A DNA stretch of 61,735 nt, filler included, from Stramenopiles sp. TOSAG23-6 (Eukaryota), in assembly GCA_900128565.1 (NCBI GenBank). It is 17 parts of 17 records of this genome, joined end to end, with 100 filler letters (N's around TTAATTAATTAA, not from the genome) between each part and the next. Parts side by side here need not be neighbours in the genome. Positions count along the whole stretch, not along the records: positions 3,664 to 7,225 come from LT637455.1; positions 7,326 to 10,884 come from LT637456.1; positions 10,985 to 14,543 come from LT637457.1; positions 14,644 to 18,200 come from LT637458.1; positions 18,301 to 21,849 come from LT637459.1; positions 21,950 to 25,496 come from LT637460.1; positions 25,597 to 29,141 come from LT637461.1; positions 29,242 to 32,778 come from LT637462.1; 9 more parts are not named here. One strand, written 5' to 3'. The first letter of the stretch is position 1, and each line of letters starts with the position of its first letter. Below are positions 5,620-57,096 of the stretch, piece by piece. The notes under the pieces were generated by a model that saw only the letters and a list, made by a program, of their open reading frames with translations, did no database searches and was not told the origin of the DNA. The position numbers and the translations under genes are program-made.

Positions 5620-7164
5620 ATGGAGAGCACGTCTTTGTTACCAAATAAGCGACCAAAGGAAGAAAGTCCTTCAGGGGTGCCTGAAATGCTCAGACGTGTT
5701 TCTGTCCATCGACTCCGTACCCAGCCGAGTGCACCGGAACACCAACACTCTAGAGAAGCTCGGCATCGTTCTAGAATCGTGCCACTTTCACCATCGACTC
5801 CATCTTCCGCAACTATCGACTTTCAAAAATGGAGTGTTAATGCAACAAAGGCAAAGATTATGGTATTACCAGCTGAAGTTCGTTTCAACCTTCGTTGTAT
5901 TGTCTTTGAGATGGACGAGTTAGCACTTGACCAATCAGCGTACTTTTCAGAAGAGATAAAGTGGCAGCAACGCCGCGATCTTGTAGTAGAATTACTATCA
6001 TCTGCATTAAATGATCACGATATGGAGCTCGATGCTGCTGTAAGTCGTGTTGTAGCACCAGTGTCATCAAGACGGTGGAAAGTATTCCGACAACGAACTC
6101 TTGATTCAAAGGTCTATAAGGCGTTTTTACAAATTGTGAGTGTACTATATTGTTTGTTATCATTTTATGAGGAGCCTTATTCTGGGAAATGGAGTCATAC
6201 AGAGATGAAGAATGCAGCTTGGACAGAATATACAGAGTATTTCATTCTTTGTATCTTTTTATTTCATGTACGTTTTCATCATTAGGGTTACTAGGGTTTA
6301 AAAAAAAAACATTTTGTAGTACATTTTGTACCTAACAAAAAATTAAATTTTCGAAATATTTTTTCACTGTACAGATCTTACTTGCCAAATCATACCAATA
6401 TAGTAAATGGGGAATTCTATTTTTGGTTTTATGGCTATTGTACGTGAGCGATGTGATCATGTATACAGTACATTCTTTAGGTTTGACTACATTTGATAAG
6501 AAACATGTACGTTTTCAAAATTGAATGTAAAATTTGTTTTATACGAAAATGTATACCTAACAAAAAAAAATTTCAAAAAAAAAAATATTTTTTCGCAATG
6601 TATATTTTTTCTTGGTGTAGATTATCAAGACCATTGCGCCCATTGTCTGTAGCGGCTTTATCACATACATATCGTAATTTATCTGGTTCTCTATTCCAAG
6701 TTTTACCTCATATAATGCCTGCAAATGTCATGATATGGATCATTATGCTTGCTTATGTACGTTTTCATTTTAATTTCAATTTTTTTTTTTTTGAAAATTT
6801 TGTACCTAACAATTTTTAGGTTTTTTTTTGAATATTTTTATATAATTCATGCTGTTTGGGGATTTCAAGCATTTTCTGATGATTTGACGTCGCAGTTATA
6901 TCAACTTGGAGGACCTGGTTTAGAAAATTTTAATACTGTGAGTCAATCATTTCTTGCAACATTTGTATTAATGAGTGAAGAGAACTATCCATATGTCATG
7001 TATCCAGCACAAATGGTAAAACCTGTCCATGCAGTATTTTATTTCACTTCATTTATAATATTGATGTTATTTCTAATGATACCATTATTATTAGCTATGA
7101 CATACTCTCAATATAAGAAGAATATGAAAAAACAGTATAAAGCAGAAATCATTCGTAAACACAT
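5620..7164 (+). CDS. Two-pore calcium channel (TPC family), 5' part, 4 exons
   Basis: LLSFYEEP, RLSRPLRPL (S4) and FLATFVLMSEENYPYVMYPA (pore) motifs. Introns 6268-6374 (GT-AG), 6507-6603 (GT-AT) and 6757-6850 (GT-AT) join the exons in frame. Confidence 0.8.
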
Positions 7165-7773
7165 GTATGATTTATTTTTTTTTTTAACAAAAAAATCGAA
7201 TTTATTTTTCGTACGAAATTTTGTANNNNNNNNNNNNNNNNNNNNNNNNNNNNNNNNNNNNNNNNNNNNTTAATTAATTAANNNNNNNNNNNNNNNNNNN
7301 NNNNNNNNNNNNNNNNNNNNNNNNNCTTTGATTACTTATAATAACACTTGTATTATATTTAAATACTCCTTACGTTTCTTTTAGATTAAGTCTCCACAAA
7401 ACGAATCTAATAGTTGTTGCGATTTTGGATTTGATTGTGAAGAACGGCACAGCAGCACTCTCTTCGGCAATAATACACAAAAAATCTCCATTCAAAGATC
7501 CGTTAGCCATTTTACGTACAAAATTTTGGTAGAGATTGATCATGGAGGTCGACAGTTTCAAGAGACAGGATCGACAACTTTTTGTTCACGTATATACGCA
7601 AACCTGCTTAGAAATCAAATCGAAAAAAAAAAAATAAAATATTATGTTTTTTGCAACACTCTTCCTTAATTTTTTAGCTACTATTAATTAGTGTCTTGCA
7701 TTACGATGTCATAGCAAGGTTTTCCCATTCACGGTAATTGCACAGCAACTGATTCTTTCGAGTCTTACTATTC

Positions 7774-8726
7774 ATGGAAATGTTATCTTCAGCGCAAGAT
7801 AATGGTGGGGTAGAGCCTCATTTAAAGTCTCATTCTGAAAAGTATGAGATATTTATTAGTAATCCAGACTTTAAATTCAATGCAGCGCACTTTATAGCTT
7901 ACAAAGGATATCGAGAACGTCTACATGGCCACAATTATCGTGTATCTGTTCGAGTTAAAGGGCGACTTGGTTCAGATGGATATGTTGTTGACTTTGGGGA
8001 TATTAAAAAGTCAACGAGACGAATCTGTAAAAGTTTAAACGAGGTATTTATTTGTCCTACTTTAAGTGATTGTTTGAATATAACTCATGTGAATAGTGTA
8101 GACGGTAAAGCTGGAAATATTGATATAGAATGTGAAGATGGTGCGCGATTTAGTTTCCCATTTGGTGATTGTGCCATGCTACCTATTGCCCATACTTCAT
8201 GCGAAGAGCTAGCGAAATATGTGTGTTTTCAGGATCAATTTTAAATTTATTTATTTTTCGTACGAAATTTTGTACCTAACAAAAAAAACAAAAAAAAAGA
8301 AAATATTTTCCCAAAATACATGTGTGTAATGTCATACTTGAAGATATGAAAATTTCCGAGTTACAATCCCGTGGAGTTTCTTCTTTCGAAGTCGGTGTCG
8401 CAGAGCGTAAGAATCAAATGGCACTATACGCTGTTGATATATTACCAAAAGTGTCTCAAAATAATTTGGTTCCACCTAATCTCAAAATGTCTGATTTGAA
8501 TCTGTCTGATAGAGAATCCAATCTCAAAATGTCTGTTTTGAATCAAGTTAGTCCTGGAATGATTACTACTATTTGTGATGAAAGTGATGATAAAAATATT
8601 GATGATGATAAAAATATTGATGATGATAAAAATATTGATGATGATAAAAATATTTATGATGATAAAAATATTGTTGTAAGCGATGGTAATGAATCAAACG
8701 ATACAAGTAGTAGCAGTGAAATATAG
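7774..8726 (+). CDS. 6-pyruvoyl-tetrahydropterin synthase (PTPS/QueD family), 2 exons
   Basis: FNAAHF, ERLHGHNY, GYVVDFGDIK and SCEELAKY motifs. Intron 8221-8321 (GT...CAT) joins ELAKY-VCNVIL. The tail has DDDKNI repeats. Confidence 0.85.
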
Positions 8727-8935
8727 TTCAGACTTATTTTATTCCTATGTCAAGTAGTAAAACGATTTAAAAATAAGTTTCATTTATTGTTTTGATGCAT
8801 CTTTAGCATATCTCAGGATTTTAATTTTTTTTTTATAGTAAATTTTGTACCTAAACAAATTTTTGATTTTTTTTTATCTCAGGATTTCAGGTAAAAATAA
8901 ATTGTTAGTTACATAATTTGGAACATGAAAAACAT

Positions 8936-10625
8936 CTATACCCATTCTTTTGGTTTACCTTGAAGTAAATCCAATGTTTTTTTTTCTGGACTATCCAACT
9001 CAGGAATATTTTTATACTCATAACGGACAGTAAGTGGAAGTGACATTAATACTGCTTCAATATCAACACCAGGTACATGTATTTTGAAAAAATATTTCAA
9101 AAAAAAATTTGAAAAAATTGTTAGGTACAAAATTTCGTACGAAAAAAAANAAAAAAATTCGNAANTNAAAAAAAAATAAAACATACAGCATATCCAAATT
9201 TCGTACCTCGATCATATACCAAGTTAAATTCAACATACCGACCATGCCTTAATGCTTGCCATTCTTTTTCTTTAGTAGTGTATGGCATATTCATTCGTTT
9301 TAATAAAATAGGCCAATAACAAGGAACAAAAGCTTTTACACAATCTTGTACAAACGATAAAGATGATGATTGTAGAGTTTGTTCATTTGGTGTAAGTAGT
9401 GTGAAACGATATTTTAAATTCGAAATTCGTTAGGTACAAAATTTCGTACGAAAAAAAAATAAATTTGAAATTCATGATGGAAACGTACAATTCTACTAGA
9501 ATCATCTCGATGTGAAAGAAACGAAAGTGCACTATTTACTTTTTCATTATTTGTATTATTATTTACTTTTTCATTATTTGTATTATTATTTGTTGTAACT
9601 GTATTCGTTTGTGATTTATATTGGTGAATATTCGTGAAATCGTCAAAAAATATTCCTCCAATGCCTCTCGCTTCTGCTCTTGCTTTGTTATAAAAATGTA
9701 TTTTGGAAAAATATTTCAAAAAAAATTCAAAAAAAATTGTTAGGTACAAAATTTTGTAAGAAAAAAAAAAAAAATTAAAACATACATATGTATCACAATC
9801 AGTTTTCATTATTGAGTATCGACTTTTAGTACTATTGTCATTTTTATCATGTTTATCACAGACATTTTTTAACGTTTTATGAAAATGTTTTGCATCGTCT
9901 TCAAATAAATAAATCGGAGTTAAATCAGTTCCTCCTCCAAACCACCAAGAAACAACTTCATCATCATCATCTGTTATTTCAAAATATCTATAATTAAAAT
10001 GTACAGTGGGTGCCATTGGATTGACTGGATGTAATATCCCACTTAACCCACACACCCACATTTGTAAATTAGGGTCACTTTCATGGCTAGGTTGTGTATT
10101 ACAAGTTTGCTCTTTCTTTTCTACCTTTTTATCCATTTTTCGCTTTTGAAGTTTTTCGCGCAACTGAGGATGATTTGCAGACATTTGTCGAATAATTGCT
10201 GGTGTAAGTGAGCGTGTCATGACTGTGAGACCAACTCCAGCTTTTTCAAAAACTCGACCATCTTGTAAAACTGCAGTTAACTTGAGAGCTCGTTTAGACG
10301 ATTTATCACGGCGCCATGTTACAATTTTCGTATCATCTGGAGCAGCAATAGACGCAGCTTTATCTTCTAATGAAGCAACACGATTGCATATATCGTGCTG
10401 TACCTGTACTAGTGTATTAATCATGGCTCTACGTGTGCTATTATTTCGAGATAAGTCGTTGCCTCCAAGAAAGTCTGACAATGTTGACGTATCGTCAGGG
10501 AGTGCAGGCGCACTACAACTACAATTGTCTGAATATTGACTTGTTGCATATATAGAGACGCCAGCAATAGCTGACGATGCAAATAACATACATCTTGAAG
10601 TCATCGCTGGTGTATTGTGTTTCAC
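8936..10625 (-). CDS. CPOX: Oxygen-dependent coproporphyrinogen III oxidase, 4 exons
   Basis: [61 protein letters not shown] and LMSLP motifs. Introns at 9696-9785, 9394-9488 and 9077-9186. Confidence 0.93.
9696..9785 (-). other. Representative family intron, GTATG...TACAT (GT-AT), 90 nt
   Basis: Removing exactly these 30 codons (VCF...KIH) restores the conserved HemF motif CDTY-FYNKAR.EARGIGG. No AG gives this junction. Confidence 0.8.
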
Positions 10626-11021
10626 TTTTTGGTGGTTGTAGAATAGTAGATATCGAAAGTTATATCATATAATATGTTTCTTTTGGCTAAGAGCGAAGCG
10701 TCCAGAAGTACTAGGGACTTTCCACTAGAGATTTTTTTTTTCTTTGTAGCCCTAACCCTAGGCTTGTCGTTTTGTGGTACCCGGTTCCATCGGTTCGCTC
10801 GCAATATTTGAATTTGCAAAAAGGTGAACAGTGAGCAGTGAGCGAAATAGTGAACATTGAGCGAAAAATGGATAAAAAGGTAGANNNNNNNNNNNNNNNN
10901 NNNNNNNNNNNNNNNNNNNNNNNNNNNNTTAATTAATTAANNNNNNNNNNNNNNNNNNNNNNNNNNNNNNNNNNNNNNNNNNNNAAAAAAAAGATGTTTG
11001 TTTTTCCTTTTGCATTTATCT

Positions 11022-13507
11022 TTAATCTTTTTGCTTCAAATTTCTTTCCTTTTCATAGTTTTTACTTAGCTCAATAATCATCTGGCGAGGACAAGGTTTG
11101 TGCTCTGTATAAACCATAGAAAATTCTCCTTTACCAACAGTTGCCGTGCGAAGATCCGTAGAATATCCAAACATAGCATTAAGAGGAACTTCACAGGTTA
11201 TATTAGTATAGTTCATGTCAGTTACAGTATCTTTGATGTAGCCTTTGCGTCTGTTGAGACCACTGATTGTATTACCTTGATATTCTTCAGGAACAACCAC
11301 ATCAACATCCATAACAGGTTCTAGAACAGTTGGTCCAGCTTGAGGGAAGTATTTACGAAATGCACCTTGAGCACATAGTCTAAAGGCCATCTCACTGGAG
11401 TCAACGGAGTGAGCATCACCATCAGTGATCACAAATCGAATACCTTCTACTGGATGTCCAATTTGTGTCCCTTTCTCCATAGCTTGTTGAAAACCTTTTT
11501 CGACTGCAGAAATGTATTCTGGTGGAATTGCATTACCTAAAATATTATTTTCAAATTCAAATGTAATGCCTTTTGATTTTAATTCATCTTCCAAAGGCTC
11601 CATATAACCAATAATTCGACCATACTGTCCTGACCCTCCAGTTTGTTTCTTGTGGAGGTAATTAAACTCTACCCTTTGAGTAATTGCCTCTCGATAATTT
11701 ACTCGAGGTTTACCCACTTTTACATCAACACCATATTCTCGAGACAAACGTTCGATATATATTTGTAAGTGTAACTCACCCATTCCAGAAATAATATTTT
11801 CTTTAGTTTCTTTATCTACATGACGACGGAAAGTTGGATCTTCCTTACAAAACCGTGAGATTGCTTTACCAAATTTAGTGCCATCTTTATTATTTGGCGT
11901 TACTGCTAAAGACATCACCGGATCTGGCACAAACATCGATTCCATCGAATATCTATTGAGTAGAAAATATTAGTAAATATTATCAAAAATAAGTTTTTGT
12001 AGATAATTATGAAATAGTATCAAAAAAAGGTTTGAAAGTCATCTGATAATAATAATAATAATGATGATAATAAAAGTTTTGTCCTTATTCGGTAATTCCA
12101 AAAACTGAATCTACATGGAAAGCGAAGCTCGCCAATGAGGGGTCTAATCCTCTTTCAGACTGGTGCCAGTATGTTTGTAGTCATCGGACAATTTACATTA
12201 TAAAAAACAGATAAAAAACACTTAAAAAAATATTACTTACTTAACATCACCAGACGTAAATGTATCCCCAGATGCACAATCAACACCAAACATTGCAAGA
12301 ATTTCTCCTGCTTTAGCACTTTCAATATCTTCCATTTCATCACTGTGCATTCGAACAATACGAGGCACCTTGATCTTACCACCGCCAGCATCAGGATTCA
12401 TATTATGAAACCATTGGCCGCGTTCAAGTGTGCCTTGATATACTCTCATATATGTCAGCTGACCAAATTGTCCTTCTTCCAATTTGAATGCAAGAGCAAC
12501 CAATGGTGCTTTCGGATCATTAGATAGAGTAATTTCCTTTTCATCATCTTTTAAATCAAGAGCAATATTTTTCACTTCTGGAGGTGATGGTAAATAATCA
12601 ATGACGGAATCCAATACATTCTGAACACCACGATTTTTGAACGCTGAGCCCATCAAAACAGGAACAAACTTCAGATTGATAGTACACCGTCGTATTGCGG
12701 ATTTCAGAACGTCATCTGGAATTTCTTCTTCCATTAAAAACAGTTCTTCAACTTCTTCATCAACTTCAGCAATTGCTTCAATTAAATCCTGTCGCTTCTG
12801 AGCTGCTTCTTCGGAAAGTTCCGAGGGAATCTCAGATACATCAATGACTTCACCATTGTCTCCAAGATTACGAACTGCTTTCATCGTCACAAGGTCAACA
12901 ACGCCTTCGAGTCCCTTTTCTTCTCCAATTGGAATCTGAATAGCACACGCATTTAGAGCAAGTTTTTCACGAAGATCAGTAATAACTTTCCATGGGTCAG
13001 CTCCTTCTCTATCCAACTTATTAATGAAAGCGATACGAGGCACGTCGTAGCGCTTCATCTGGCGATCAACAGTAATTGATTGACTTTGCACACCTGCTAC
13101 ACCACACAATACAAGCACAGCTCCATCCAGCACACGAAGTGCACGCTCCACTTCGACTGTAAAATCAACGTGGCCTGGAGTATCAATAATGTTCATATGT
13201 GACTCTTTCCATTGACAAAAAGTAGCAGCAGATTGAATTGTAATACCTTTTTCTCTTTCTAAATCCATGGAATCCATTTTTGCTCCGACACCATCTTTTC
13301 CCCTGACTTCATGAATTGCATCCAGTTTTCCAGCGTAAAAGAGAATTCGTTCAGTCAAAGTTGTTTGTGTGCCGAAATACCAAAGTTACGGTACCTATTG
13401 ATTGCGTCATCACTGCCAGCAGAGGATGCAAAAGTACGGGACAACAAATTCGATTTTATAGGAGCTGCCCATGCCTTGCGTGTAGCCTGGACAATGAACC
13501 GATTCAT
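11022..13507 (-). CDS. GFM1: Mitochondrial elongation factor G, 2 exons, with a frameshift in the G1 box as assembled
   Basis: [27 protein letters not shown] and [12 protein letters not shown] motifs, and a transit-like N-terminus. Canonical GTAAGT...TAG intron at about 11953-12240. Confidence 0.92.
12079..12191 (-). ncRNA. Candidate intronic box C/D snoRNA guiding the 18S rRNA helix-18 region
   Basis: GC-richer island in the EF-G intron, sense to the host, bounded by a TTGTCC/GGACAA stem. It contains CTGGCACCAG-T-CTGA and TGGAATTACCG, both antisense to the universal 18S segment CTGGTGCCAG...CGGTAATTCCA. Boxes C and D are degenerate. Confidence 0.6.
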
Positions 13508-18200: not shown

Positions 18201-18331
18201 NNNNNNNNNNNNNNNNNNNNNNNNNNNNNNNNNNNNNNNNNNNNTTAATTAATTAANNNNNNNNNNNNNNNNNNNNNNNNNNNNNNNNNNNNNNNNNNNN
18301 AATTAATGAAAGTATTAAAATGAGAACAAAC

Positions 18332-18512
18332 ATGTTCAGAAAATCCATTAATACCCCACATCTTTAAAAGTCCAGCAACAAGGCCTTGTGAAACACCACT
18401 AGAATGAAGTGAAGTAGCTTGTGAATATTTTGTAAAAAATATATTTTTTTTTTTTCCGTAAAATGTTTTTTTTGTTAGGTACAAAATTTCGTACGAAAAA
18501 AAAAAAAAAAAC

Positions 18513-18543
<31 letters not shown>

Positions 18544-18794
18544 AAATGACTCAATGATCAAACACAAACGTACATGGCACAGACCAAGAAGCTAATCGAC
18601 CATCTGGTGATGTTGTTGAAGTACCTTCGCCTAAATGTTTTTCTGCTAATCGTAGAAACATATCCCTACGTTGACGGTAAAAATGCGTAATATTGACAAC
18701 ATGTATTTTTGTATAATATTTTTAAAAATATTTCAAATTTTTGTTAGGTACAAAATTTCGTATGAAAACTAAATAAATTTAAAATTTTCGAAAA

Positions 18795-18825
<31 letters not shown>

Positions 18826-20133
18826 CCTTAAAAGTTTTTTTTTTTTGGGTAAAAAATTTCGTACGAAAAAAAAAAAATAACAAAAAAATAAAAACATCGT
18901 ACATGTAATTGTAAACGGTCAATTAACTGTGATGGTCCAGTTGCCCAACCCACACGAATTCCTGAACTTAATACTTTTGAAAATGAATCAAATCGGATAA
19001 CTCTTTGATCGATATCCATTGAATAAAATGATTTCATGTTTCGTGTTTCATTAGGGTTAGGGTTTTCATTACTAGGGTTAGGGTTAAATTGTAGATAAAA
19101 ATATGGATCATCTTCTAAAATAATCAAATTTTCACGTCTTGCTATTTCATATATTTTCTCTCTACGTTGACTGGATAGAGTAGCTCCAGTTGGATTTGAA
19201 CCATTTGGTATTGTATATATATTTTGGAAAAATATTTCAAAAATTAAAAAAAAAAAATTTGTTAGGTACAAAATTTCGTATAAAAAAAATATTTTGGAAA
19301 AAAAAAATTGAAAAAAAAATAAAACATACATAAAACACGAGGTTTTCGTTTTGAAGGGTATAATACATTCCAATTTTTTAAAACCTCATCAAGAATATCA
19401 GGTTGGAGACCGTTCTGTTTGTTAGCTATTATATATATATAGATTTTCATACTTGAGAAAAAAAAAAAATTTAGTTGTAAAAAAAAATTTAAAAAAAAAT
19501 TAAAAAAAAATTTTGAAATTTTTTTGAAATATTGGAAAGGAAACGTACTTCATCTGTATCAATACCAATTTGATTGATACCATATGGTGTAAGAAAAGCA
19601 AGTGATCCAGAATATGTTGGTGTTTCAAGGAGTAAAGAATCCCCAGGATTAAGAAGCATTTCGAAAGATTTTGTCAGAACATCTTGAGACCCTGTTCCTA
19701 CTAAAATACTCGAATTCTTGGAATGTTCTGATGGATGATACGTAGACTGGATGATCTCAAGTTGTTCAATGAGAGAAGGTAAACCGAGGGTTGGACTATA
19801 TTGCAAAACTTCTTCTAGTGTTTTTCCTTCTAAAGTAAAAGAAGAAGAAGATGTTTTGTTACTATTTGTCTTTGATGATTTTTTTACCATTGTTGTATGA
19901 ATTTCAATCTGGTCAAAAGGAAAAGTCTCGCTATTCGGCATTCCTCCACCTAAAGAAATCATACCAGGAATTTTTAATAGTGGTTGTAAAGCACGAATTG
20001 CACTTGGTTTACGCTGAAGAGAAGCCTTTGAAAAAAAATGTTCATAGTCATGGAGAGTTGTTGTTGAAGCATACATACAACGTATTGAACGATTGATCTC
20101 CATGCATTTTTGTCTTGAACGCAAAATCATCAA
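18332..20133 (-). CDS. AADAT: Kynurenine/alpha-aminoadipate aminotransferase (PLP class I), partial, last two exons in swapped order
   Basis: MISLGGGMPN, LQYSPTLG, YTIPNGSNPTG, ILEDDPY and DSFSKVLSSGIRVGW motifs. Introns 19415-19548 (GT-AG) and 19217-19329 (GT-AT). Confidence 0.88.
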
Positions 20134-20494
20134 AGACTAATGTGACTATACTGTATTAGAAGGATAATAATAATTTATTTGTCTTGTGATTGCCAATAAA
20201 AAGTACTTGATATTTAAAACTTGATTCTTATTTTGTAGTTATGTGTTTCTTTTTTTGTATTATTATATTGAGATCTGAATCAAATCATCTGATCGATCCT
20301 GATTTGAGATTTGTCATCGGTCAAAAATGACGTATTAATAATATTATTATTTAAAGTACAAAAGGTACAAAAACTACTGGTCAACAATAATGGTCAACAA
20401 TACCTACCTTTCAATAGTACTGGAAAGGTATTACACTGAATAATACTATAAATAATATACAAATTGATGTACAAAGTATAATACTAAGCATATA

Positions 20495-21745
20495 ATGTAT
20501 TATCTGTTTAAAACGCCTGTACGTCGTATGGGTATAGCGTGTCTTGGTGCTGCTACTGCCGGAATCGGGTTTCATAGTTATTCAACAATGGAACGTCGAG
20601 AAGAAAAAAAGATAACACAGGAAGAACTTGAACAAAACGATGGCAGTGAAGGCATGCCGCTGTGGATTTCTTACAAAAATTCTGTGTATGATGCAACAGA
20701 CTTTATCGATATTCATCCTGGTGGTCGAGAGAATCTAATGATGGCTGCTGGTGGTGCTATTGACTCCTTTTGGGACTACTATTCAGCTCATCGAGGAAGT
20801 GGTAAAGGTGTCAAAGCGTTGAATGCCCTTCCACGTGTCGGAACTTTAGTTATAGAACCAACTGATACATCTGTCGATGAATTAGAATTGGATCCATGGG
20901 AGAATGAACCCTCTAGATCTACTACATCAACACTTCAGCCTCTTAACGGTGATACGGGAAATAATTTGACTGGTCCTTTTGAAGCTGAGTCTTGGCCGAT
21001 CCCATTTACATTTAAAACTCCAAATTCTTCGTTTTATGTTCGAAATCATGCTCCAGTACCAGAATCAATAGATCTAAAACACGCAGGATTATCTATCGGT
21101 ATTGATTCAAGTATTTTTAAAAGAAAAAATACAAAAAATACAAAAAATACAAAAAATACAAATTTGGAGTCCAAAGAAATATCAAAATATTTTTTACTGA
21201 AAGATTTGGTCAAAAATACTTCAAATTATGAAACAATTACGTTGGACGTCACCATCCAATGTACAGGTAATCGTCTTCAAGAAGCTGAATCGGCTCTTAA
21301 AACAGCTGATATGGATTTAAAATGGGATGGAAAAGGTGTAGCACCAAAAAGTGGTGGATTGATCAGTAATGCTTCTTGTTTGTTTTATTTTGTTTTATTT
21401 TGTTTTATTTTTTTTTATTTTTTTTTTTTGAAATATTTTTTTTTGAAATATTTTTTTTTGAAATATTTTTTTTTGAAATATTTTTTTCGTACGAAATTTT
21501 GTACCTAACGTTTTTTTTTTCATAATTTCATGTTTTATTTTTCACAATACATGGACTGGAATCAGACTAACAGACTTACTTTTTCAAGCAGGTTTGAACG
21601 ATGCAGACATTGACACAGAAAATATTGATAAATACTGTGTCACAATGTATGGGGCAGATGGATTTTCGAATGCAATGCCTTTAGCTCATGTCATTAATAA
21701 AAAAAATGATGTACTGGTTGCATGGAAAATGAATGGAACACTTAT
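20495..21745 (+). CDS. SUOX: Sulfite oxidase (cytochrome b5 plus molybdopterin domain), 5' part
   Basis: VYDATDFIDIHPGG, FYVRNHAPVP, TIQCTGNR and AWKMNG motifs. Intron 21378-21552 (GT-AT) restores ISNASWTG. Confidence 0.85.
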
Positions 21746-21950
21746 GTATGTTTTTTTTTTTTTTCAACAAAAAAAAATCGATTTTTTTTTTTGGTTTTCG
21801 TACGAAATTTTGTACCTAACGAATTTTTTTTTGAAATATTTTTCCAAAANNNNNNNNNNNNNNNNNNNNNNNNNNNNNNNNNNNNNNNNNNNNTTAATTA
21901 ATTAANNNNNNNNNNNNNNNNNNNNNNNNNNNNNNNNNNNNNNNNNNNNT

Positions 21951-41476: not shown

Positions 41477-43775
41477 TGTATTTTTTATATGAATTTCTAA
41501 TTTAATTTTTTTTTTTTGGTTTTTTTTCGTAAAAAAANNNNNNNNNNNNNNNNNNNNNNNNNNNNNNNNNNNNNNNNNNNNNNNNNNNNNNNNNNNNNNN
41601 NNNNNNNNNNNNNNNNNNNNNNNNNNNNNNNNNNNNNNNNNNNNNNNNNNNNNNNNNNNNNNNNNNNNNNNNNNNNNNNNNNNNNNNCGTTTTAATTTTT
41701 TTTTTTTTTTTGGTTTTCATACGAAATTTTGTACCTAAGAAAAAAAAACATTTTTTTTTTTTTGAGTTTTTATTTTTTTTTAGGGTTAAGAACAATGTCT
41801 TGTATACTCTTACTATACCAAGATAAACAAAATCATAAAACATTTTACACAAACAACAAATATCTAATTTTTTGTTCTTTTCTACATGTATATACAAACA
41901 TTATATGCAGTTGGATCAAAATTGATGGAAATAAAAATGTAAAAATTTTAAAATCTATGCGTGGTAGACGGCCTGGTGGCAAAGTGTATAGGAATGACAC
42001 TGAAATCTCTCTCTCTGATGTTAAATGTATGTTTTTTTTTTTTTTTTAAAAAAAAAATCGATTTTTTTTTGGTTTTTTTTTAAAAAAAAAATCGATTTTT
42101 TTTTGGTTTTTTTTTAACAAAAAAATCGATTTTTTTTTTGGGTTTTTTTTTTGGTTTTTTATAAAAATTTTGTACCTAACGATTTTTTTTTGAAATCTCT
42201 CTCTCCGATATTAAATCAGCTTCGACGACAACAGAATTGTTCAAAGCACTACAAAACTTTCAAACGGTTATAGACAAAAAAACTTCAATTAAATGGATAT
42301 ATTGATTCAAAACTCTTAAAAATTGTATCACAAACATTAGAAAAAAGCAAAACTGAAATTTGGACTCCTGAAATTTCAGAGAAAATTACATATTTATTTA
42401 AGCGTTTAGAACCATTTTGTATTGATCCTGATCATGATAAAATGGATGAATGTAAAGCAAAACAAAAGACTTATTCCAATAGTGTGTGGCCAACTCATGA
42501 AGTTTGTTTTCATCATGAATTTTTTTTATTTTTTTTTTTTCATAAAGAATTTTTTTTTTATTTTTTTTTCATCATGAATTTAATTCCAAAATGTNNNNNN
42601 NNNNNNNNNNNNNNNNNNNNNNNNNTTTTTTTTATTTATTTTTTTTTTTTGAGTATGTACCAATGTACCATTCATTCATCATGATAAAAACATCAATCAA
42701 TTTTGAATTCTTATTTCTCAATATGATACCTTTTTTAACATATTTTCTTCATAATAGTGTAAATTAAATGAAACACCACAAAATGTTGCTTTAAAATATT
42801 TCGTTGATTTGGAATCTCTTTTAATAATTAATAGAATTATATACAAAAATCTCTCTTCTACGTCAAAGCTACGTGAACACACAGTGTATGTTTTATTATT
42901 ATTTTTTTTTTTACAAAAAAATCGAATTTTTTNNNNNNNNNNNNNNNNNNNNNNNNNNNNNNNNNNNNNNNNNNNNNNNNNNNNNNNNNNNNNNNNNNNN
43001 NNNNNNNNNNNNNNNNNNNNNNNNTTAATTTTTTTTTTTTAAATATTTTTCTACAATACATACTTTGGTTACCTAGACAATTCCATAAAAGTAAAAATGA
43101 TAATAGTTTAGTACAAAGAGAAAAGCAACTCATGAAAGGAGCTTTTCTCGATACTGAGGATCCTAACCCTAATTCTGCTGATGTCAACCCTAACCCTAAT
43201 AATCAAAATTCAAACATTTCAAAAAAAACAAATATTGATAGTTCTATTGATAGTTCTATTGATAGTTCATTAACTCTGTCAGATGAAACACATGAACAAT
43301 TGGATAATAAAAAAACACAAATAATGATTGAGCAAAACAGAGAAAAACAACATACTACTCCAACTAATGTACATTTTCATCCTTCCTGTTAACCCTAACC
43401 CTAATTTTTATTTATTTTTTATATTTTAAAATCTAAAAAATTTTTTTTTTTTTTTTGTTTCTGTAAAAAAAAACACAAAAAATAAAAATTGTACCTAATT
43501 TTTTTTTTTACACTACAAGAGCAATTCACACACAGTAAAGGTCTACTATATTGCATATGATAATGAAACACCAAAACTAATCTCAAATGTATGTTTTATT
43601 TCTTTTCAATTTCGAATTTATTTTTCGTACGAAATTTTATACCTAACGATTTTTTTTTGAAATATTTTTCCAAAANNNNNNNNNNNNNNNNNNNNNNNNN
43701 NNNNNNNNNNNNNNNNNNNTTAATTAATTAANNNNNNNNNNNNNNNNNNNNNNNNNNNNNNNNNNNNNNNNNNNN

Positions 43776-45413
43776 GTTAGTGGAGATTTAAGTGTAACAA
43801 CAGGAACAACATCAGAAGGTAGTAGTGGATATGTTGTTCTTCGCACAGGTAGTGCCACTCTTGGTACAGGTGGAAGTATAAGTATTGTTATTGGAAGTGG
43901 GAAAACTGGCACTGGAGGTCGTGTTGTTATGTCAGCAGGAGAGAGTACAATTCTAACTGGTGGTGCTATTTCAGTTGTATCGGGATATGGTAGTGAATCT
44001 TCTAGCGGTTCATTCAGCATTCACACATCGAGAAGTGGAACTAATGGTGTATCTGGAGAAGTATCTTTGGTATCAGGAAAAGTAACTACAGGGGGTAGTA
44101 GTGGATCTATAACACTCCAAACTGGTTTGGCAAGATCAGGCACAAGTGGAAGTATTAGTCTCGCTGTTGGAAGTGGTAATACATCAGTCGGAGGACGTAT
44201 TGTTATTAATTCTGGTGAAAGCACGAGCACAACAGGTGGTGCGATATCGATTATTTCTGGATATGGATCATCATCATCATCTGGCAACTTTTCAATAAGA
44301 ACATCAAATGGAGGTGAGTCAGGAGTTAGTGGAGATTTAAGTGTAACAACAGGAACAACATCAGAAGGTAGTAGTGGATCCATTGTTCTTCGCACAGGTA
44401 GTGCCACTCTTGGGACAGGTGGAAGTATAAGTATCGTTATTGGAAGTGGGAAAAATGGTACTGGAGGTCGTGTTGGTATGTCAGCAGGAGAAAGCACAAT
44501 TCTAACAGGTGGTGCTATTTCATTTATATCTGGATATGGTAATGAATCTTCTAGCGGTTCATTCAGCATTCGCACTTCGAGAAGTGGAACTAATGGTGTA
44601 TCTGGAGAAATATCTTTTGTATCAGGAAAAGTAACTACAGGGGGTAGTAGTGGATCTATAACACTCCGAACTGGTTCGGCAATATCAGGCACAGGTGGAA
44701 GTATAAGTTTTACTGTTGGAAGTGGTAATACATCAGCCGGAGGACGTGTAAGTATAGATGCGGGAAATAGTGAAGGTTCCGGAGAGAGCTATGGTGGTTC
44801 AGTTTCGATGTTATCTGGTTATGGGAAATCTACATCAAGCGGAAGTTTCAGTATTAGAAGTGCTGATTCAGGTGACTCAGGTATTAGTGGATTGATGAAT
44901 ATTGTAACAGGTGACTCAATATTTGGAAATAGTGGAACAATGATGCTTCGCACAAGTAATGCAGAGAATGGCACTGGTGGTAACTTTAGTGTTGTTGTCG
45001 GGCGTGGTACACATAATAGTGGAGCTCGAGTTGCAGTAATTGCAGGAGAGATCGAAGATACTACTGGTGGGTCTATATCTATAATATCGGGGTATGGGCG
45101 TCAAAGCTCAAGTGGTATATTTAGTGTTCGTACGTCAAATTCTGGTAATGGTGGTGTCTCTGGTAGTTTGGGCATTTCCACTGGATATGCATCTAACAGT
45201 AGTGGTAAATTTTTGCTTCAAACTGGTACTGCAAAATTAGGTTCGTCCGGAAGTATTAGTGTTCTTGTAGGTGGTGGAAGTATAAAGTCTGGTGGGCGCT
45301 TAAGCTTAATATCTGGATCAAGCGAAGATGAAACTGGTGGAGCAATTTCAATATTTTCAGGTCATGGGAGTACTACATCTAGTGGAACATTTAGCATAAG
45401 TACATCTGATGTA
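43776..45413 (+). CDS. Gly/Ser-rich repeat protein (same family as 36515-40045), fragment
   Basis: GGAISxxSGYG..SSGSFSIRTS higher-order repeats; the coding strand flips at about 45407. Confidence 0.6.
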
Positions 45414-47297
45414 GGAACATTTGTTCCACTACCAACAATTACACTAACACTGCCACTTGTTCCTAGTGTTGCAGAACCAGTGCGGAATATCATATTTCCA
45501 CTACTTCCACCACTTGCTGACCCTGTAGCAATAGATATATCACCCGAAACACCATTCAAGCCAGAACGGGAAGTGCGGACACTGAAAGAGCCACTTGAAC
45601 TCAAAGATCCATATCCTGAAATTAAAGAAATGGCGCCTCCATTTAGCGATGTACTTTCACCAGCACTTATAATAATGCGCCCACCAACTGATTCATTGCC
45701 GCTACCAACTACAATACTCAAACTTCCACTTGTTCCTAATGTTGACGAACCTGTACGTAGCCTGATTATACCAGAGCTGCCACCTGTTATAACTTTGCCA
45801 GATGCCAAAGATATTGTCCCAGATATACCGTCTATTCCTGTATCAGAAGTTCGGAGACTAAATGAACCGCTTGACGATACATTTCCATAACCAGACATTA
45901 ATGAAATTGAACCACCTGTAGAAGTATTGCTTTTTCCAGCTGATATAACAACACGACCACCATATAAAACATTACCACTTCCGATGATCACACTCATGTT
46001 TCCACCAGTACCCGATGTGCTACTTCCTGTCCGGAGTATCACGGAGCCGCTAAAGCCAGCAGAAGAATTTCCGGAAGTGATATTTAATTTTCCATTTGCT
46101 CCGTGAGAACCCGCATTTGATGTTTTAATAGAAAATGATCCACTTGAAGATGTAGAGCCATACCCTGAGATGAGAGAAAAGGATCCACCAGAAGTAGATG
46201 TACTTTCCCCGGCGCTGATTACGATCCGTCCCCCGGAAGATGAAATCCCACTCCCAACAATTACACTTATAGACCCGCTAGCTCCAAGTGTAGCTGAATT
46301 AGAGCTGAGCGAGATTGTACCACTTTTACCACTACTAGATGAACCAGACGTCAATGCAATGGCGCCTGAAATACCCGCATCACCTGAGTTATTTGTCATG
46401 ATACTGAACGAGCCACTAGATGTTTCCCTTCCGTGTCCCGAGATGATTGAGAAGTTTCCACCACTTACTGTTGTGCTTTCTCCTGCGCCCATACTTATAC
46501 GACCTCCAACAGAAAAGCTACCTTTACCAATAATTACACTAATAGATCCTCCAGTCCCACTTATCGCAGATCCAGAACGAATAGTAACATAACCACTACT
46601 TCCTTTTGTAGCTGAACCCGATATTAAAGAAATCTCACCTGATACTCCTGAATTTCCGGCAAAAGGTGTACGTATGCTGAAGGAACCACTTGATTTTGTG
46701 CTTCCATATCCGGTTATAATGGATAAGCCACCACCTGTGACATCTGTACTTTCACCAGACGTCATTACAATTCTTCCTCCTGCATTATAATCGCCACTTC
46801 CAACAGAAACATTAATATTTCCACCAGATCCATTTACTCCAGAACCCGATGCAAACGTGAGCATACCACTACTACCGATCTTCGCAAAGCCTGTTCCTAA
46901 AGTCATAGAACCAGAAGCCCCATTTGTCCCTGATGCTAACGTTTTTAGAAAGAATTCCCCGCTAGTTTCATTTGCACTAAAGCCAGAAATCAAATGTATT
47001 GCCCCGCCTGTTCCATCTAACATTGTACCTGGAACGACTTTGGCAGCTCCACCAATTGATTTTTTTACGTCACCTTTACCGACAAGAAGACTTATACTGC
47101 CACTCGTGCCAAGCCTTGCTGTGCCAGTGGAGATTATCAACCCCCCACTATTACCCTTAGATGTTGTACCTGTTTTGAATGATAAAGAACCAGACACACC
47201 GTTATGCCCTGCATCCGATGTCTTAATAATGAATACACCACCAGATGTTATTTTGCCATACCCACTTATGATTGACATTGTCCCTCCTCTCGAATTT
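45401..47297 (-). CDS. Gly/Ser-rich repeat protein, fragment on the opposite strand
   Basis: Same repeat pattern in ORF 45362-47278. Confidence 0.6.
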
Positions 47298-47397
47298 NNN
47301 NNNNNNNNNNNNNNNNNNNNNNNNNNNNNNNNNNNNNNNNNTTAATTAATTAANNNNNNNNNNNNNNNNNNNNNNNNNNNNNNNNNNNNNNNNNNNN

Positions 47398-52657: not shown

Positions 52658-54404
52658 ATGAACTCGACTGTACAGACACAATCGAAAATACGTGACTCCA
52701 ATTGCGCCTTTTCGCACGTTGATTTTAATGTTATTGCAAATCTAGGTTTCGGCGAAACAATTCGGGTATGTGGACATGTTCCTGCGTTAGGTTGTTGGGT
52801 ACCAAATGATGGTGTCCCCCTTGTGACAACTCCCGAAAGCCATCCAATGTGGTACACAGCTCGCCCGGTGGCTCTCTCCCGTGGTGAAGTTGTAAAATAT
52901 AGGTACGCATTATTTGTAGCTGGTGAATTTGATCGATGGGAAGATTCCGAAAACTCAAGAGTTCGTGAATTGCGTCTCACAGAAGATATGCAAGTTTGGT
53001 GTGTTCAAGACCGTGTTGATATTAAGAATCGAGCTCGAGTGAATATTCCTGAATCTGCTCTGCATCAACAATTACTAAAGAAAAGACTGTCACCCAGCAC
53101 AAAGTCATTCTTATCACCGCTTATACAACAGCAACGTAAAGCAATAGAAACATCTCAGTCTTCTGTCACTGCACCTGGTGAACCAGCTGAACATCAGTCT
53201 GTACATTCAAACCTTTCAAATACTTCGCTAATGAACCCTAACCCTAATAAGCTCACATTGCCTACATCGATTAATTCTGAAACTGATAGTTCTGTGTATT
53301 CTGGCCCAGTGATTGATGGAGAAAGACTACAACGTTCAAGTATATATTCGACATCTAATCCACTTCAAGCACCACCATCGTTCAGCACAGCAACCGGATT
53401 ACACAGAAATGTAGCAAATAGTGATGAAGATATTAGTATTGGTCGAAATGATGGCATTTTAATTATTGTTCTTTATCTACCAGTACACATTGTTCGTGAA
53501 CCGGGTACTAAAGAGTGGAGCGTAACTTGGGATGGGAACAGCTTACTTGCAAGAAAAAAAACAACAATTGCAGACAAATTGAGATTTCTTTGGATTGGAA
53601 TGCCAAAACTTCCTCCTGATACAAAGTACACACATCGTGAACGAATGGAAATTACAGTGGCGTTAAGTAAACTTCGTTGTATTCCTGTGTTTGCAAAACT
53701 GTCCACCAGAAAACTTCATGAAGAATATTGCCGTAACACTTTACATGTATGTCAAATGTTTTTTTCATTTTCCATGGATTGATTTTTCATACGAAATTTT
53801 GTACCTAACGATTTTTTTTGAATGTAATTTTTTTTTGGTTTTTTTTTTGGTTTTTTTTTGTTTTTTTTTGTTTTTTTTTTAGTTTTCGTACGAAATTTTG
53901 TACCTAACAATGTTTTTTTATGATTTCATGTTTTTTCACAATATATGATTTATTTCATAATGTCATTGATGTATACGCTAAATTACCAACTCGCTGGTGT
54001 CGCAGAAAAGATCAAAATAATGACTGGCAAGGATACACTGCGTTAAATCAAATTTTTGCCAACAAAATATCTGAAACGTATGATGAAGGTGATTTTATAT
54101 GGATACAGGATATTCACTTTTTGGTGTTACCTTCTTTTGTTGCTCGTAAACTTCCAAAATCGAATATCGGTTTATATTTATGTACGTTTTCATTTCAATT
54201 TCAAAATTTTTTTTTTATAGTAAATTTTGTACCTAACGAATTTAAGTTTTTTTTTTGAAATATTTTTTCATAATCCAGATTCGCCGTTTCCATCATCAGA
54301 AATATTTCGAACTCTTTCAGTAAGGGATAAACTTTTACGTGGTATGCTCAACGCGGATCATTTGGGATTTCCTTTATTTGAATACACAAGGCATTTCTTA
54401 GCTT
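52658..54404 (+). CDS. CBM20-fused trehalose-6-phosphate synthase (GT20), 5' part
   Basis: FGETIRVCGHVPALGCW (CBM20), WIQDIHFLVLPSF and SPFPSSEIFR..LLRGMLNADHLGF motifs. Introns 53747-53946 (GT-AT) and 54182-54278 (GT-AG). Confidence 0.88.
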
Positions 54405-54627: not shown

Positions 54628-55587
54628 AAAAAAAAAAAAAAAACACAAAAAAAAAAATATGTTTCACAATATATGAATTACTATTTCACTTGATTGAAGA
54701 GAGATGGATAAAGAAAAAAAAATCATATTGGTGGTCATATCTTAATACCTTACCACTACCTCATCAGCAGCAAAATCCTTTATATTTCAATAAAGACGAA
54801 ATTCGTGGATTGAAAGGATCGACGATGGAAATCGATGTAATTGAGTATCAAAATTCTGTTTCGACAATGTTTACCTTTATCAAAAAACGTGTTTTTGATA
54901 AATTTCCTGAAAATTTTCCTGCAAAATATTTCAACTTGGATACGTATAAATGGGCGACAGCAATACTCAATAGTCAAAGTGTATGTTGTTTTTTTTTCGT
55001 ACGAAATTTTGTACCTAACAAAATATTTTTTTTTTTTTTTTTGGATAAATTTTTCTTAGGTTTAGGTACAAAATTTTTTTACCAAAAAAAAAAAAAAAAA
55101 AAAAAAATTTTTTTTTTTTTTTTTTTTTTTTGGTAAAAAAATTTTGTACCTAAACCTAAGAAAAATTTATCCAAAAAAAAAAAAAAAAATATTTTGTTAG
55201 GTACAAAATTTCGTACGAAAAAAAAACAACATACACTTTGACTATTGAGTATTGCTGTCGCCCATTTATACGTATCCAAGTTGAAATATTTTGCAGGAAA
55301 ATTTTCAGGAAATTTATCAAAAACACGTTTTTTGATAAAGGTAAACATTGTCGAAACAGAATTTTGATACTCAATTACATCGATTTCCATCGTCGATCCT
55401 TTCAATCCACGAATTTCGTCTTTATTGAAATATAAAGGATTTTGCTGCTGATGAGGTAGTGGTAAGGTATTAAGATATGACCACCAATATGATTTTTTTT
55501 TCTTTATCCATCTCTCTTCAATCAAGTGAAATAGTAATTCATATATTGTGAAACATATTTTTTTTTTTGTGTTTTTTTTTTTTTTTT
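54628..55587. repeat. Perfect 960-bp palindrome duplicating a SET-protein exon (likely amplification/assembly fold-back)
   Basis: ORFs 54690-55136 (+) and 55079-55525 (-) are identical; the centre is a polyA/polyT run at about 55107. Confidence 0.9.
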
Positions 55588-55903
55588 ACAAAGATTCAAA
55601 AAAAATCGTTAGGTACAACATTTACTATGAAAAAAAAAAATTGAAAAAAAATTAAAAACATTTAAAAAAATAAGGGTTAGGGTTAGGGTTGATGAAAAAG
55701 GAACATACATGATGAGAATCACCTTGTGGAAATTCAACTCTCAATTTTTTCAAAGCTGGTGCAATTAAATTACTGTTTTGAAGTGCTGAAAATGACGTCA
55801 TATACATTCTTTGAGGAAGAACTAAATAATTTTTACCTATACTGATATTTGATGTACTAATCACCGAAATTAAAAGTCCGCCTTTTTGAACTGCCGTTTT
55901 TAC
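55233..55903 (-). CDS. SET-domain (Rubisco-LSMT/SETD3-like) methyltransferase exons
   Basis: LVLPQRMYMT, GDSHH-ELLFHLIEER, SYWWSYLNTLP, PLYF..EI..LKGS and YKWA..ILNS motifs. Confidence 0.72.
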
Positions 55904-56033
55904 ATGTATTGTGAAAAAAACACGAATTTTACAAAAAAAAAAAATCGTTAGGTACAAAATTTCGTACGAAAAAAAAAAATTCGATTTTTTTTTTTTTTCG
56001 GTAAAAAAAAAAAAAAAAATAAATAAACCATAC

Positions 56034-57096
56034 AGCTCCTTCAACGCCCTCAATCGAATCAACCACATTTTTTATATTTTTTATATTTTGTATATTTTTA
56101 TGATTTTGATAATTTTCTGAACACTCATCATTATAATGGATTTCGTGATAATTATTCAAAGTATGTGTTTGAATTGTATCAAAACAGGTTTGTTCAAATG
56201 AAGATTTTATACATGTTGAAAAATCTGTATTAAAATTTGTTAAATGATTATTCATTCCGTTGGGAGAACACGAAAAACGTGGATATATACTAGCTAAACT
56301 TGGCATTGATAAAAATTTCTGAAATGTTGCACGTAATAAAATGGTACGAATTTTGATACCTACATATAATGTGAAAAAAAAAAAAAAAATTTACATTTTA
56401 CATTTTTTGTTAGGTACAAAATTTCGTACGAAAAATAAAAATAAATTTGAAATTGACAAAAAAAACAAAAAAAACAAAAAATACCCGAGCTGACATAAAT
56501 TCTTGATGAGACTGAGCAATGGAAGCAATGAGTTGGGTAAATAAAAGAGCTAGAGAGCATTGCCATCCTGTTGATATAGTTCGATGTTGACAACCATTCA
56601 CTTCTTGACAATATTCATCTCCGCCAGCAAGAATCCATTCTACTAAATTTTTGATGAGAAATGGCGACAAGAAATGACAAGAGATGCTAATTACGTATAA
56701 AAACGCTGCTACAATAAGTTCGCTAGCAAACATTCGAAAAAAGATCGATATAAGTCTAGGTTGTTTTGTTTGATATTGGTTATTTCGGTTATGTATGTGT
56801 ATGTTTGGTTCATTTTGTTCATTTGATTCATCTCCCTCTTGTGTAGGGTTGTTTGTGTGTATAGTTTGAATGAAGAATGATGAACTCTCTGTGTTTTTTT
56901 CATCATTAATTGTTTGAAATTCTCTTGTTAATTCTTGATTAAATCTATAATGTAAATGTTGTACTTTATCTGATTCTGGGATATTATATATGTCTGAAAA
57001 ATCAAGGGGTCTTGAAAAAGCAGCATTTGTTAATGAAGACGTCCATAAGAAGAAAAGTTTATCGAAAAAAGAGGAATGTTCAAAACCTTGTGACAT
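56034..57096 (-). CDS. ABCC/MRP-type ABC transporter, N-terminal exons
   Basis: SFFDKLFFLW, PLDFSDIYNIPESD and LSPFLIKNLV motifs. Intron 56364-56484 (GT-AT) gives SAR-VGIKIRTIL...FQKFL. Confidence 0.8.

Follow-up and report, generated by a model that had tools for sequence, protein, structure and literature searches.

How are short inserts that begin with GT and end with AT removed from the genes that they interrupt? The question is raised by a stretch of 61,735 nucleotides (hereafter the window) from the assembly of Stramenopiles sp. TOSAG23-6 (GCA_900128565.1), in which ~45 copies or fragments of one element of ~90–120 nt are found within 59.5 kb, in at least ten unrelated genes on separate contigs. 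The best explanation of the family, its ends, its orientation, its flanks, and the need for its exact removal is that the inserts are young and very abundant introners, derived from a short non-autonomous DNA transposon and removed by the spliceosome in a GT..AT register; we give this reading a probability of about two in three. The window consists of ~17 contigs of 3.50–3.56 kb, arranged longest first and linked by N44-TTAATTAATTAA-N44. The linkers are artificial, and therefore genes that are neighbors across them are unrelated. The GC content per 4-kb bin is 24–41%. A search with EF-G exons retrieved the public gene model P0187 (named GSMAST32.ASY1.ANO1.416.1), which is identical block by block to the EF-G of the window but is missing some internal segments, and the other best-named EF-G matches are all from stramenopiles (Aphanomyces, Nannochloropsis, and brown algae). 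Because of these sequence matches, the host is taken to be a MAST-3-like marine stramenopile. Two other hosts were considered and rejected: Amoebophrya, whose GC content is too high, and a diplonemid, which the EF-G matches contradict.

The inserts share a GTAYGT start, a branch-like box, a T tract, and a YAT end. The 22-nt core CGTACGAAATTTTGTACCTAAC, which contains the box, has 30 matches with at most three mismatches in the window, compared to 0 expected from 100 shuffles. A profile built from 13 copies yields 51 nhmmer matches with E<0.01, including one reverse-strand echo of the palindromic core and one assembly-duplicate pair. In the curated list of 5′ ends, which contains one wrongly placed row (18329), GT is present in 35 of 37 rows, and one copy starts with GA (29575). 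The 27 curated 3′ ends comprise 23 AT, two AG (6374 and 54278), and two TT (9394 and 61485), and their last three bases are CAT (15), TAT (8), CAG (2), and CTT (2), so that a pyrimidine occupies position −3 in 27/27 and an A position −2 in 25/27. Among the 22 complete copies, 18 end in AT (one of them with the GA start), two in AG, and two in TT. Single copies are 90–130 nt long, and composites with two or three cores extend over 168–478 nt. For 19 of 21 copies, the box lies 33–45 nt from the intron end; the two exceptions have distances of 23 and 67 nt. All 22 complete copies lie sense to the reading frame of the host gene, as had been predicted from the sequence together with the start, the T tract, the box, and the YAT end, and as would be expected from the asymmetry of these signals. 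Their phases are 0 (14 copies), 1 (7), and 2 (1), a bias in keeping with targets that end in CAT or TAT codons.

The family has a density of ~0.75 copies per kb in the window, and its summed depth in DNA sequencing runs exceeds that of unique sequence by four to five orders of magnitude. The summed depth and the density suggest a copy number on the order of 10^4 genome-wide. Family copies contain at least 12 of the 32 contig ends, as in the copy cut off at 21746–21849 (plus strand), which indicates that the assembly breaks at these repeats.

Exact removal of the inserts is needed to maintain the reading frames and the conserved motifs of the host genes. Cutting from GT to the family end leaves 35 or more open codons to either side in 22/22 complete copies, and in 17 of them the acceptor can be moved only by multiples of three without losing this. 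In HemF, the 90-nt intron at 9696–9785 (minus strand, GTATGT...CAT) appears as a gap of exactly 30 codons in eight of eight tblastn alignments, and the Tyr and Phe that are joined by its removal are invariant in 111/111 homologues, with no residue between them. The HemF intron at 9077–9186 (minus strand, GTATGT...CAT, preceded by CT) is joined without insertion or deletion relative to the 111 homologues. For AADAT, 83 homologues of 330–600 residues were selected from 149 non-self matches. The join VL|Y|TIPNG formed by the removal of 19217–19329 (minus strand, GTATGT...TAT, phase 1) has Tyr in 78/83 and Pro in 79/83 homologues and contains no indel. A second AADAT region runs from donor GTACGA at 18902 to acceptor TAT at 18425 (minus strand) and includes three cores and a misplaced exon (18574–18700). 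Its join LH|SQA has Gln in 52/83 homologues, also with no indel. In PTPS, the exon ends flanking the intron at 8221–8321 (plus strand, GTGTGT...CAT, phase 0) align to residues 141 and 142 of PDB 1y13_A, and the PF01242 match reaches the last residue of the upstream exon. The original prediction that conserved motifs are restored with YAT ends thus holds, gap-free against homologues, at both HemF joins, in AADAT, and in PTPS.

The sulfite oxidase intron (21378–21552, plus strand, GTTTGT...CAT, phase 1, with an internal tandem repeat) had been expected to restore a tryptophan motif. With the terminal T included and the E-value threshold relaxed, the Trp codon T+GG formed at the join aligns with W214 of PDB 1sox_A, but the alignment is weak (E 1.2–1.8), and an insert of eight residues just upstream of the join loosens the case. 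The downstream exon alone has no PDB match at E≤0.01, the Pfam coordinates overlap at the join (positions 73 and 72), and Ser-Trp results under both the GT–AT and the slid register described below. In the trehalose-phosphate synthase gene (TPS), PF00982 is continuous over the join of the CAG-ending copy at 54182–54278 (plus strand), with positions 171 and 173 flanking a split codon and the upstream exon aligned to its last residue. The join of the other TPS intron (53747–53946, plus strand, GTATGT...TAT, two cores) lies beyond the extent of the Pfam and PDB alignments and was placed by frame. By eye, this join may be one residue short of what we take to be the usual motif. The joins in RPN10, VPS18, the ABC transporter, and the two-pore channel (TPC), and those of the other copies in genes with no homologues to compare, were also placed by frame alone.

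The AT end can be traced to the flanks of the inserts. T directly precedes the donor in 32/37 copies (p=2e-11), with A at −2 in 27/37 (p=1e-6), a pyrimidine at −3 in 25/37, and A at −4 in 18/37. The first base after the intron is a purine in 21/27 copies (p=0.003), and the second is T in 14/27. AT stands directly upstream of 24/37 copies and is terminal in 23/27, and the insert-free site reads as a palindrome, AYAT|RT, with AT at its center. No co-variation between the flanks is seen at the third base, and therefore the duplication is 2 nt long. As judged from these flank statistics, the sites carry the signature of a cut-and-paste DNA transposon with a palindromic target and a 2-nt AT duplication. 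Copy 9394–9488, which has TT on both sides, resembles a TT target duplication. The inverted ends, GTAY and RTAC, are only 4–6 bp long. The family therefore has several properties of introners, namely many copies, exact removal, inverted ends, and a target-site duplication. The AT end is best explained if the intron is composed of the element, GTAY...RTAC, plus the 3′ copy of the duplicated AT. The AT acceptor had been put forward as a trait of the lineage; the YAT end of the family stands, and its origin is best placed in the duplication.

In the proposed mechanism, an element GTAY...RTAC would insert into the palindromic AYAT|RT and duplicate the central AT. The major spliceosome would read the element-borne GUAYGU donor, the UACCUAAC branch box, and the U tract, and would make the second cut behind the AU duplicate at the 3′ side, removing the element and one AT and restoring the original codons. 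The acceptor YAU would correspond to YAG with the final G replaced by U. As in known introners, the target-site duplication would supply it, the duplicated dinucleotide being AT in place of AG. The second step would be positioned by the conserved 3′ block UUUUYCAMAAUAYAU, possibly with pairing of the termini. With slightly better than even confidence, we propose that an AT-duplicating transposon colonized coding sequence, that the major spliceosome of the MAST-3-like host routinely completes the second step after U for about ten thousand introns, and that the cut is placed by the 3′ block or by end pairing, not by the dinucleotide.

The observations that weigh against this reading concern the register, the choice of the cut, the pairing of the ends, and the RNA runs. 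In 15/22 copies, the mRNA stays the same if both cuts are moved 2 nt leftward, and homology cannot separate GT..AT from NN..AC in those 15. Given removal by the spliceosome, we nevertheless infer that the GT–AT register is quite likely. A single rule, GT..AT, GT..AG, or GT..TT, fits 21/22 copies, and GT...Y-A-(U/G) covers 19/22 with two TT ends and one GA start as the exceptions, whereas under the slid reading the starts and ends would have to be of many kinds. The terminal G of the two CAG copies, 54182–54278 in TPS and 6268–6374 in TPC (plus strand, supported by profile and frame), aligns with the terminal T of the others, and these copies are plain GT-AG introns. The shared alignment column of the CAG ends was predicted correctly and lends weak further support to the GT–AT register. 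At the HemF 9186 join, GT–AT gives Ala (2/111 homologues) and the 2-nt slide gives Asp (0/111); join residues in such register-informative copies are weakly conserved. A further register-informative copy is in RPN10 (24296–24385, plus strand, GTACGT...CAT, preceded by AC), where the alternatives are Leu and Phe. Copies 55904–56033, 56364–56484, and 61383–61485 are likewise informative on the register.

The most specific form of the slide is a major-spliceosome AT-AC intron, in which AT-GTAY...RTAC is cut 1–2 nt further left and the first A and last C form a known compatible pair. U2-dependent AT-AC introns are on record (PMC1557818; for this source and for 10.1101/2020.10.14.339549, PMC6221363, PMC7789003, PMC12130899, PMC12621601, and PMC13326754, statements refer to the part of the text that was available). 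AT precedes 24/37 copies, and 15/27 end in CAT. Nevertheless, 13/37 copies have no preceding AT, and the 8/27 that end in TAT would give slid introns ending in AT or GT, so that the AT-AC reading yields the same mRNA in just 7/22 complete copies. AUGUAY also fits the donor consensus of the ordinary introns of this genome worse than GUAYGU, and both the CAG alignment and the Asp at the HemF 9186 join speak against the slide. We therefore regard AT-AC splicing as unlikely, although it is the least unlikely of the alternatives to GT–AT splicing.

A YAU trinucleotide alone cannot set the cut, since an earlier YAT lies between the branch box and the used end in 19/21 copies, at −14 or −15 in 17 of the 21. 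The predicted YAT acceptor is thus required by the frame but is not a sufficient signal. In copy 36041–36135 (minus strand, GTACAT...CAT, in a gene for a Cys-rich repeat protein), a CAG is present 5 nt ahead of the required cut, and its use would break the frame. Among the 20 non-AG copies, nine have no frame-preserving AG within −40 to +45. They include the VPS18 copy at 29731–29826 (minus strand, GTACGT...CAT, phase 1). The remaining 11 have an in-frame AG 3–45 nt downstream, which counts against an AT cut where no homologue was compared. For HemF, PTPS, AADAT 19329, and sulfite oxidase, use of the downstream in-frame AG was considered and rejected, as it would delete conserved residues. For copy 30765–30859 (minus strand, GTATGT...CAT, phase 2), which has in-frame AGs at +3 and +6, an AG acceptor may be used instead. 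For the AADAT region 18902/18425, the public gene model P0361 chooses a GT..AG pair displaced by +7/+7; the length is unchanged, but VRS then stands where the homologues have xQx. AG occurs four times between the box and the intron end, compared to 15.3±3.0 expected from shuffles. The copies share ancestry, and therefore this depletion is not independent evidence; the sequence ahead of the box is likewise poor in AG (7 AG compared to 37 GA).

These AGs bear on the possibility that the inserts are not precisely removed at all, the genes being in decay or using a nearby AG, and the fit of the frames being a by-product of insertion with no later change. The downstream AGs in 11/20 copies agree with this, as do the public gene models P0361 and P0187, which match the window at 18302–20136 and 11022–13385, respectively, and avoid YAT ends. 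However, the models lose conserved residues in doing so: P0361 reads into the family intron 19217–19329 and drops the YTIPNGSNPTGA motif of AADAT, and P0187, which skips internal segments, is without 24 EF-G residues. Furthermore, the inserts lie in conserved motifs of many unrelated housekeeping genes whose frames are otherwise intact, and a usable AG is absent in 9/20 copies. Although the sole RNA-library contig that crosses a donor is unspliced (see below), we consider a lack of precise removal improbable.

The last six bases of the intron, AUACAU, can pair with the exon AU and the donor GUAU, and such a stem forms in many folds of single copies. The pairing is only 5–6 bp long, and no compensatory change was seen by eye. 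The z-score of the terminal stem lies between +0.4 and −2.1, and mismatches in the GTACG subfamily are uncompensated. The pairing of the ends would have a greater role if the inserts were excised from RNA independently of the spliceosome, as proposed for the nonconventional introns of euglenids and diplonemids. The single-copy folds often pair (AU)GUAUGUUUU with AAAAUACAU (for example, in copies 8221, 19329, 6507, and 30859), and the nonconventional introns are described as bringing their junctions together (PMC6221363, PMC12621601). They also resemble the present family in having pairable ends and in their discussed transposon origin (PMC6221363, PMC12621601). In the available text, however, they are described as having neither conserved borders nor a donor complementary to U1 (PMC6221363), whereas these copies have a conserved GUAYGU and a branch box, and their end pairing is present but short and A-U rich. 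A symmetric stem predicts no strand bias, yet all 22 complete copies are sense, and the best-named matches place the host in the stramenopiles, a different lineage. Pairing-guided excision is accordingly doubtful, somewhat more so than the AT-AC register.

The donor and box of the family are of the kind found in ordinary introns. The mitochondrial EF-G gene contains a non-family intron, GTAAGT...TACTAAT...AATAG (11953–12240, minus strand), flanked by positions that correspond to homologue residues 364 and 366, which serves as a control. In AADAT, the intron at 19415–19548 (minus strand) has a family-like start (GTACGTTTCC) and ends in CTAACAAACAG, giving GTACGT..CTAAC..CAG; its join GIDTDE|NGLQPD agrees with the homologues and with P0361. 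These GT-AG introns show that the lineage still uses AG, and that the family donor and branch box are of the ordinary kind. Of the proposal that the spliceosome of this lineage tolerates, or is specialized for, AT acceptors, the need for YAT ends is retained, but ordinary introns of the same genome use AG.

The signals of the family are major-spliceosome-like, and unlike U12 motifs or the U12 branch-to-end spacing. A minor (U12-type) or otherwise separate spliceosome that tolerates GT–AT would explain the long fixed donor and branch motifs, and GT–AT is competent for U12 splicing, with seven catalogued U12 introns (PMC1557818). Against it, the donor is GTAYGTTT in place of RTATCCTT, with G and T at +5 and +6, and the box reads TACCTAAC, unlike TTCCTTRAC. 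Its distance from the end is mostly 33–45 nt, compared to 9–12 nt for the TTTGA motif of Physarum (10.1101/2020.10.12.336362). The same donor types serve GT-AG introns in the window, and the Rfam search found 0 families there, hence no small nuclear RNA gene was seen in the window. Removal by a separate spliceosome is therefore as improbable as the absence of precise removal.

The stretch occurs in runs coded "organism A" (6–18 Mb of contigs), in seawater metagenomes, and in two seawater metatranscriptome runs. Logan contigs were compared with window positions 9168–10884 for a single-cell-type DNA run (X1), an independent seawater metagenome (X2), and the two metatranscriptomes (X8 and X9). 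The exon cover in the RNA runs is thin and comprises parts of three HemF exons (X8 9168–9341 and 9527–9689; X9 10192–10364). Among the joints listed for the two metatranscriptome runs, with this thin cover, no spliced joint was present at either HemF intron. A 197-nt contig of X8 (record 17) extends from the exon past the donor at 9186 and into the intron with 0 differences; it may represent pre-mRNA or carried-over DNA. The family sequence is abundant in both RNA libraries, with a family-to-unique depth ratio of ~3,000–7,000, compared to ~24,000–56,000 in the DNA runs, the depths not being comparable between runs. Protein searches with HemF, EF-G, and HemF around the intron returned no near-identical transcript-derived protein, and a metagenome scan with the first HemF exon gave 80 loci, none above 43% identity, with no empty site and no cDNA. 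The prediction of a spliceosome that accepts AT thus has the sense-oriented family and the need for exact removal in its favor, and the unspliced crossing of donor 9186 and the lack of a listed spliced joint against it. Removal at the RNA level by the spliceosome is what we infer from the former.

The DNA runs agree with the predicted borders of the HemF inserts. Contigs of X1 and X2 cross both ends of the HemF intron 9696–9785 with the letters of the assembly, and no variant is listed at the terminal AT. Because independent DNA carries the same letters, the terminal AT of this copy is not an assembly error, a possibility that had been named as a way to overturn the AT reading. Similarity to copies elsewhere in the genome stops exactly at 9187 and 9696, where the borders are predicted. 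The same contigs bear on removal at the DNA level, by precise transposase-type excision that leaves one AT, as for the internal eliminated sequences of ciliates. The AT...AT borders with one copy kept are a precise-excision signature, and the palindrome of the flanks points to a transposase. On the other hand, X1 record 8 (depth 54.7) and X2 records 15 and 16 cross the borders at the depth of unique exons, although contigs can hide rare forms, and a skip of 9696–9785 is not among the joints listed. The inserts are thus present in bulk DNA, unlike ciliate-type eliminated sequences, and the suggestion that they might be missing from part of the DNA finds no support in these contigs. Strict sense orientation and donor and branch signals would also be unexpected for elements excised from DNA. 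DNA-level removal is the least probable of the alternatives.

In many run contigs, a family 3′ end is followed, after 0–2 bases, by a family 5′ start (9168–9187 to 9695–9698). The commonest form of this junction is found in 70 contigs of X1, 52 of X2, and four of X9. They may stem from tandem insertion, with a new element entering the AT of an older copy, or from circles.

In its copies, its exact removal, and its transposon marks, the family resembles introners, and it departs from them in the terminal dinucleotide. Introners of Micromonas, Aureococcus, Polarella, Symbiodinium, and many others share with it many near-identical copies at unrelated positions, a sense bias, short inverted ends, a target duplication, and the removal of the element together with one duplicate (10.1101/2020.10.14.339549, PMC12130899), and the target-site duplication supplies one of the two splice sites of introners (bioRxiv 10.1101/2020.10.14.339549). 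The families described in the available text end in AG with GT, GC, or GA starts, whereas here the duplication is AT and the intron ends in AT; the standard AG was found in only 2/27 ends. A 2025 survey of introners reports AG and AC 3′ sites and discarded families with unfamiliar sites and no RNA support (PMC12130899); in its available main text, neither "mast" nor "stramenopile" occurs (0 occurrences each).

The original prediction knew of no description of AT acceptors, which is too strong. In Fritillaria borealis and its relatives, introns ending in AC or AT are removed genome-wide by the U2 spliceosome (PMC13326754), and sporadic GT–AT introns have been reported. Fritillaria resembles the present case in using non-AG 3′ ends, AC and AT among them, across its genome. 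The GT/AG rule holds at either end in fewer than 10% of its introns, and the odd ends are read by additional U2AF paralogues (PMC13326754); here the donor is canonical, the last base alone departs, and the ends belong to one repeat family in a protist host. The introners of Amoebophrya, another marine protist, are repeated introns with inverted repeats and direct repeats of 3–5 nt over the borders (PMC7789003). In the text available for them, they have no consistent terminal dinucleotides and no clear U1 system (PMC7789003), whereas GT..AT is uniform here, and the quoted GC content of Amoebophrya genes is ~54–58% (PMC7789003), compared to 24–41% in the window. The sporadic GT–AT introns have the same terminal pair, with splicing shown or argued. 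They include the U2-type intron of DGCR2, the U12-type introns of DEADC1 and SLC24A6 (PMC1557818), and some of the U12 introns of Physarum (10.1101/2020.10.12.336362). They are single loci or a minority class and mostly U12-type, whereas here GT–AT is the rule of a whole U2-like family. The literature covered, which comprised main texts, gave no account of the family or of unusual introns in MAST lineages. In MAST genome papers, "intron" and "splice" occur 2 and 0 times in PMC5778133 (in the methods only), 0 and 1 times in PMC8163842 (in the reference list), and 0 and 0 times in PMC12614181, with no description. What is new here is the reading of the family as a transposon-born GT–AT introner; introners, and non-AG acceptors elsewhere, are already known.

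The remaining copies were placed mainly by frame. A composite of two tandem units at 3846–4021 (minus strand, GTACGT...TAT, phase 1) keeps its frame only if the acceptor is moved by multiples of three. TPC contains two further phase-0 introns, at 6507–6603 (plus strand, GTACGT...TAT) and 6757–6850 (plus strand, GTACGT...CAT), both placed by frame only. The same holds for the CTT-ending HemF copy 9394–9488 (minus strand, preceded by TT), which lies within a lineage-specific insert of HemF, for the copy with the GA donor at 29484–29575 (minus strand, GAATGT start, CAT end), and for the RPN10 and second TPS introns described above. Copy 55541–55708 (minus strand, GTATGT...TAT), assigned by family match and frame, contains an insert of three CCCTAA units, and copy 55904–56033 (minus strand, GTATGG...CAT, preceded by CT) has no frame-preserving AG nearby. 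The frame evidence is weak for the ABC transporter intron at 56364–56484 (minus strand, GTATTT...TAT, preceded by GG), where two frames are open on one side, and for the CTT-ending copy at 61383–61485 (plus strand, with AT upstream), where two frames are open in a reading frame that has no identified product. Telomere-like repeats occur in or beside several copies: TTAGGGTTACTAGGGTTT among the TTAGGG-like inserts of 6268–6374 (6285–6305), CCCTAACCCTAACCCTT in 55541–55708 (55660–55690), and TTTAGGGTTAAG near 41795 (41790–41800). Copy 32200–32347 (minus strand) has a normal start and branch box and lacks the usual 3′ block; by eye, neither nearby AG fits its downstream frame, and AAT| 21 nt past the box does. 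An inverted repeat of ~40 nt (CACGAAATCCTGCTGGAATCATCTTTAGCAACTC...) surrounds a degenerate family-like core at 59245–59440 and may be another small foldback element.

Several features of the window reflect its assembly. Two AADAT exons are out of order within 18330–18902 (minus strand), the exon of residues ~376–422 (18700–18574) standing before that of residues ~328–353 (18424–18330). Because all the joins are in phase 0 and flanked by family copies, a misassembly driven by the repeats is the probable cause. A perfect 510-nt inverted duplication (54630–55139 and 55076–55585, overlapping at the center) makes its contig palindromic, as in amplification chimeras, and one family copy is consequently counted twice, at 54981 and 55228. 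The P-loop region of EF-G (13330–13400, minus strand) looks broken: homologue alignments start at 13367, the preceding GISAH is in another frame, and the IDSGK part is missing. By eye, the region is ~13 nt short, which may be an assembly or amplification error. The first contig contains an open frame of 1137 residues (139–3552, minus strand) with a weak Atlas lead to Mutator-like transposases (score 0.78), no Pfam match, and no tie to the insert family. Very long Ser/Gly/Thr-rich open frames at 36463–40089 and 43728–47341 are built from repeats of ~30 residues (GSISI...SGYG) and may encode surface proteins; the one stretch searched against Pfam, 36517–38400, had no match.

If RNA confirms the cut after YAU, the family would be a clean case of a non-canonical splice site that an introner takes from its target-site duplication. 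The spliceosome of this organism would then accept YAU thousands of times while using AG elsewhere in the same genome, which would bear on the stringency with which the second catalytic step reads the final base of an intron, and on the mass creation of introns by transposons. The genome would offer a natural, genome-scale experiment on the choice of the 3′ splice site. Because public gene models mishandle these introns and assemblies break at their copies, the gene catalogues and completeness scores of such uncultured lineages are probably biased.

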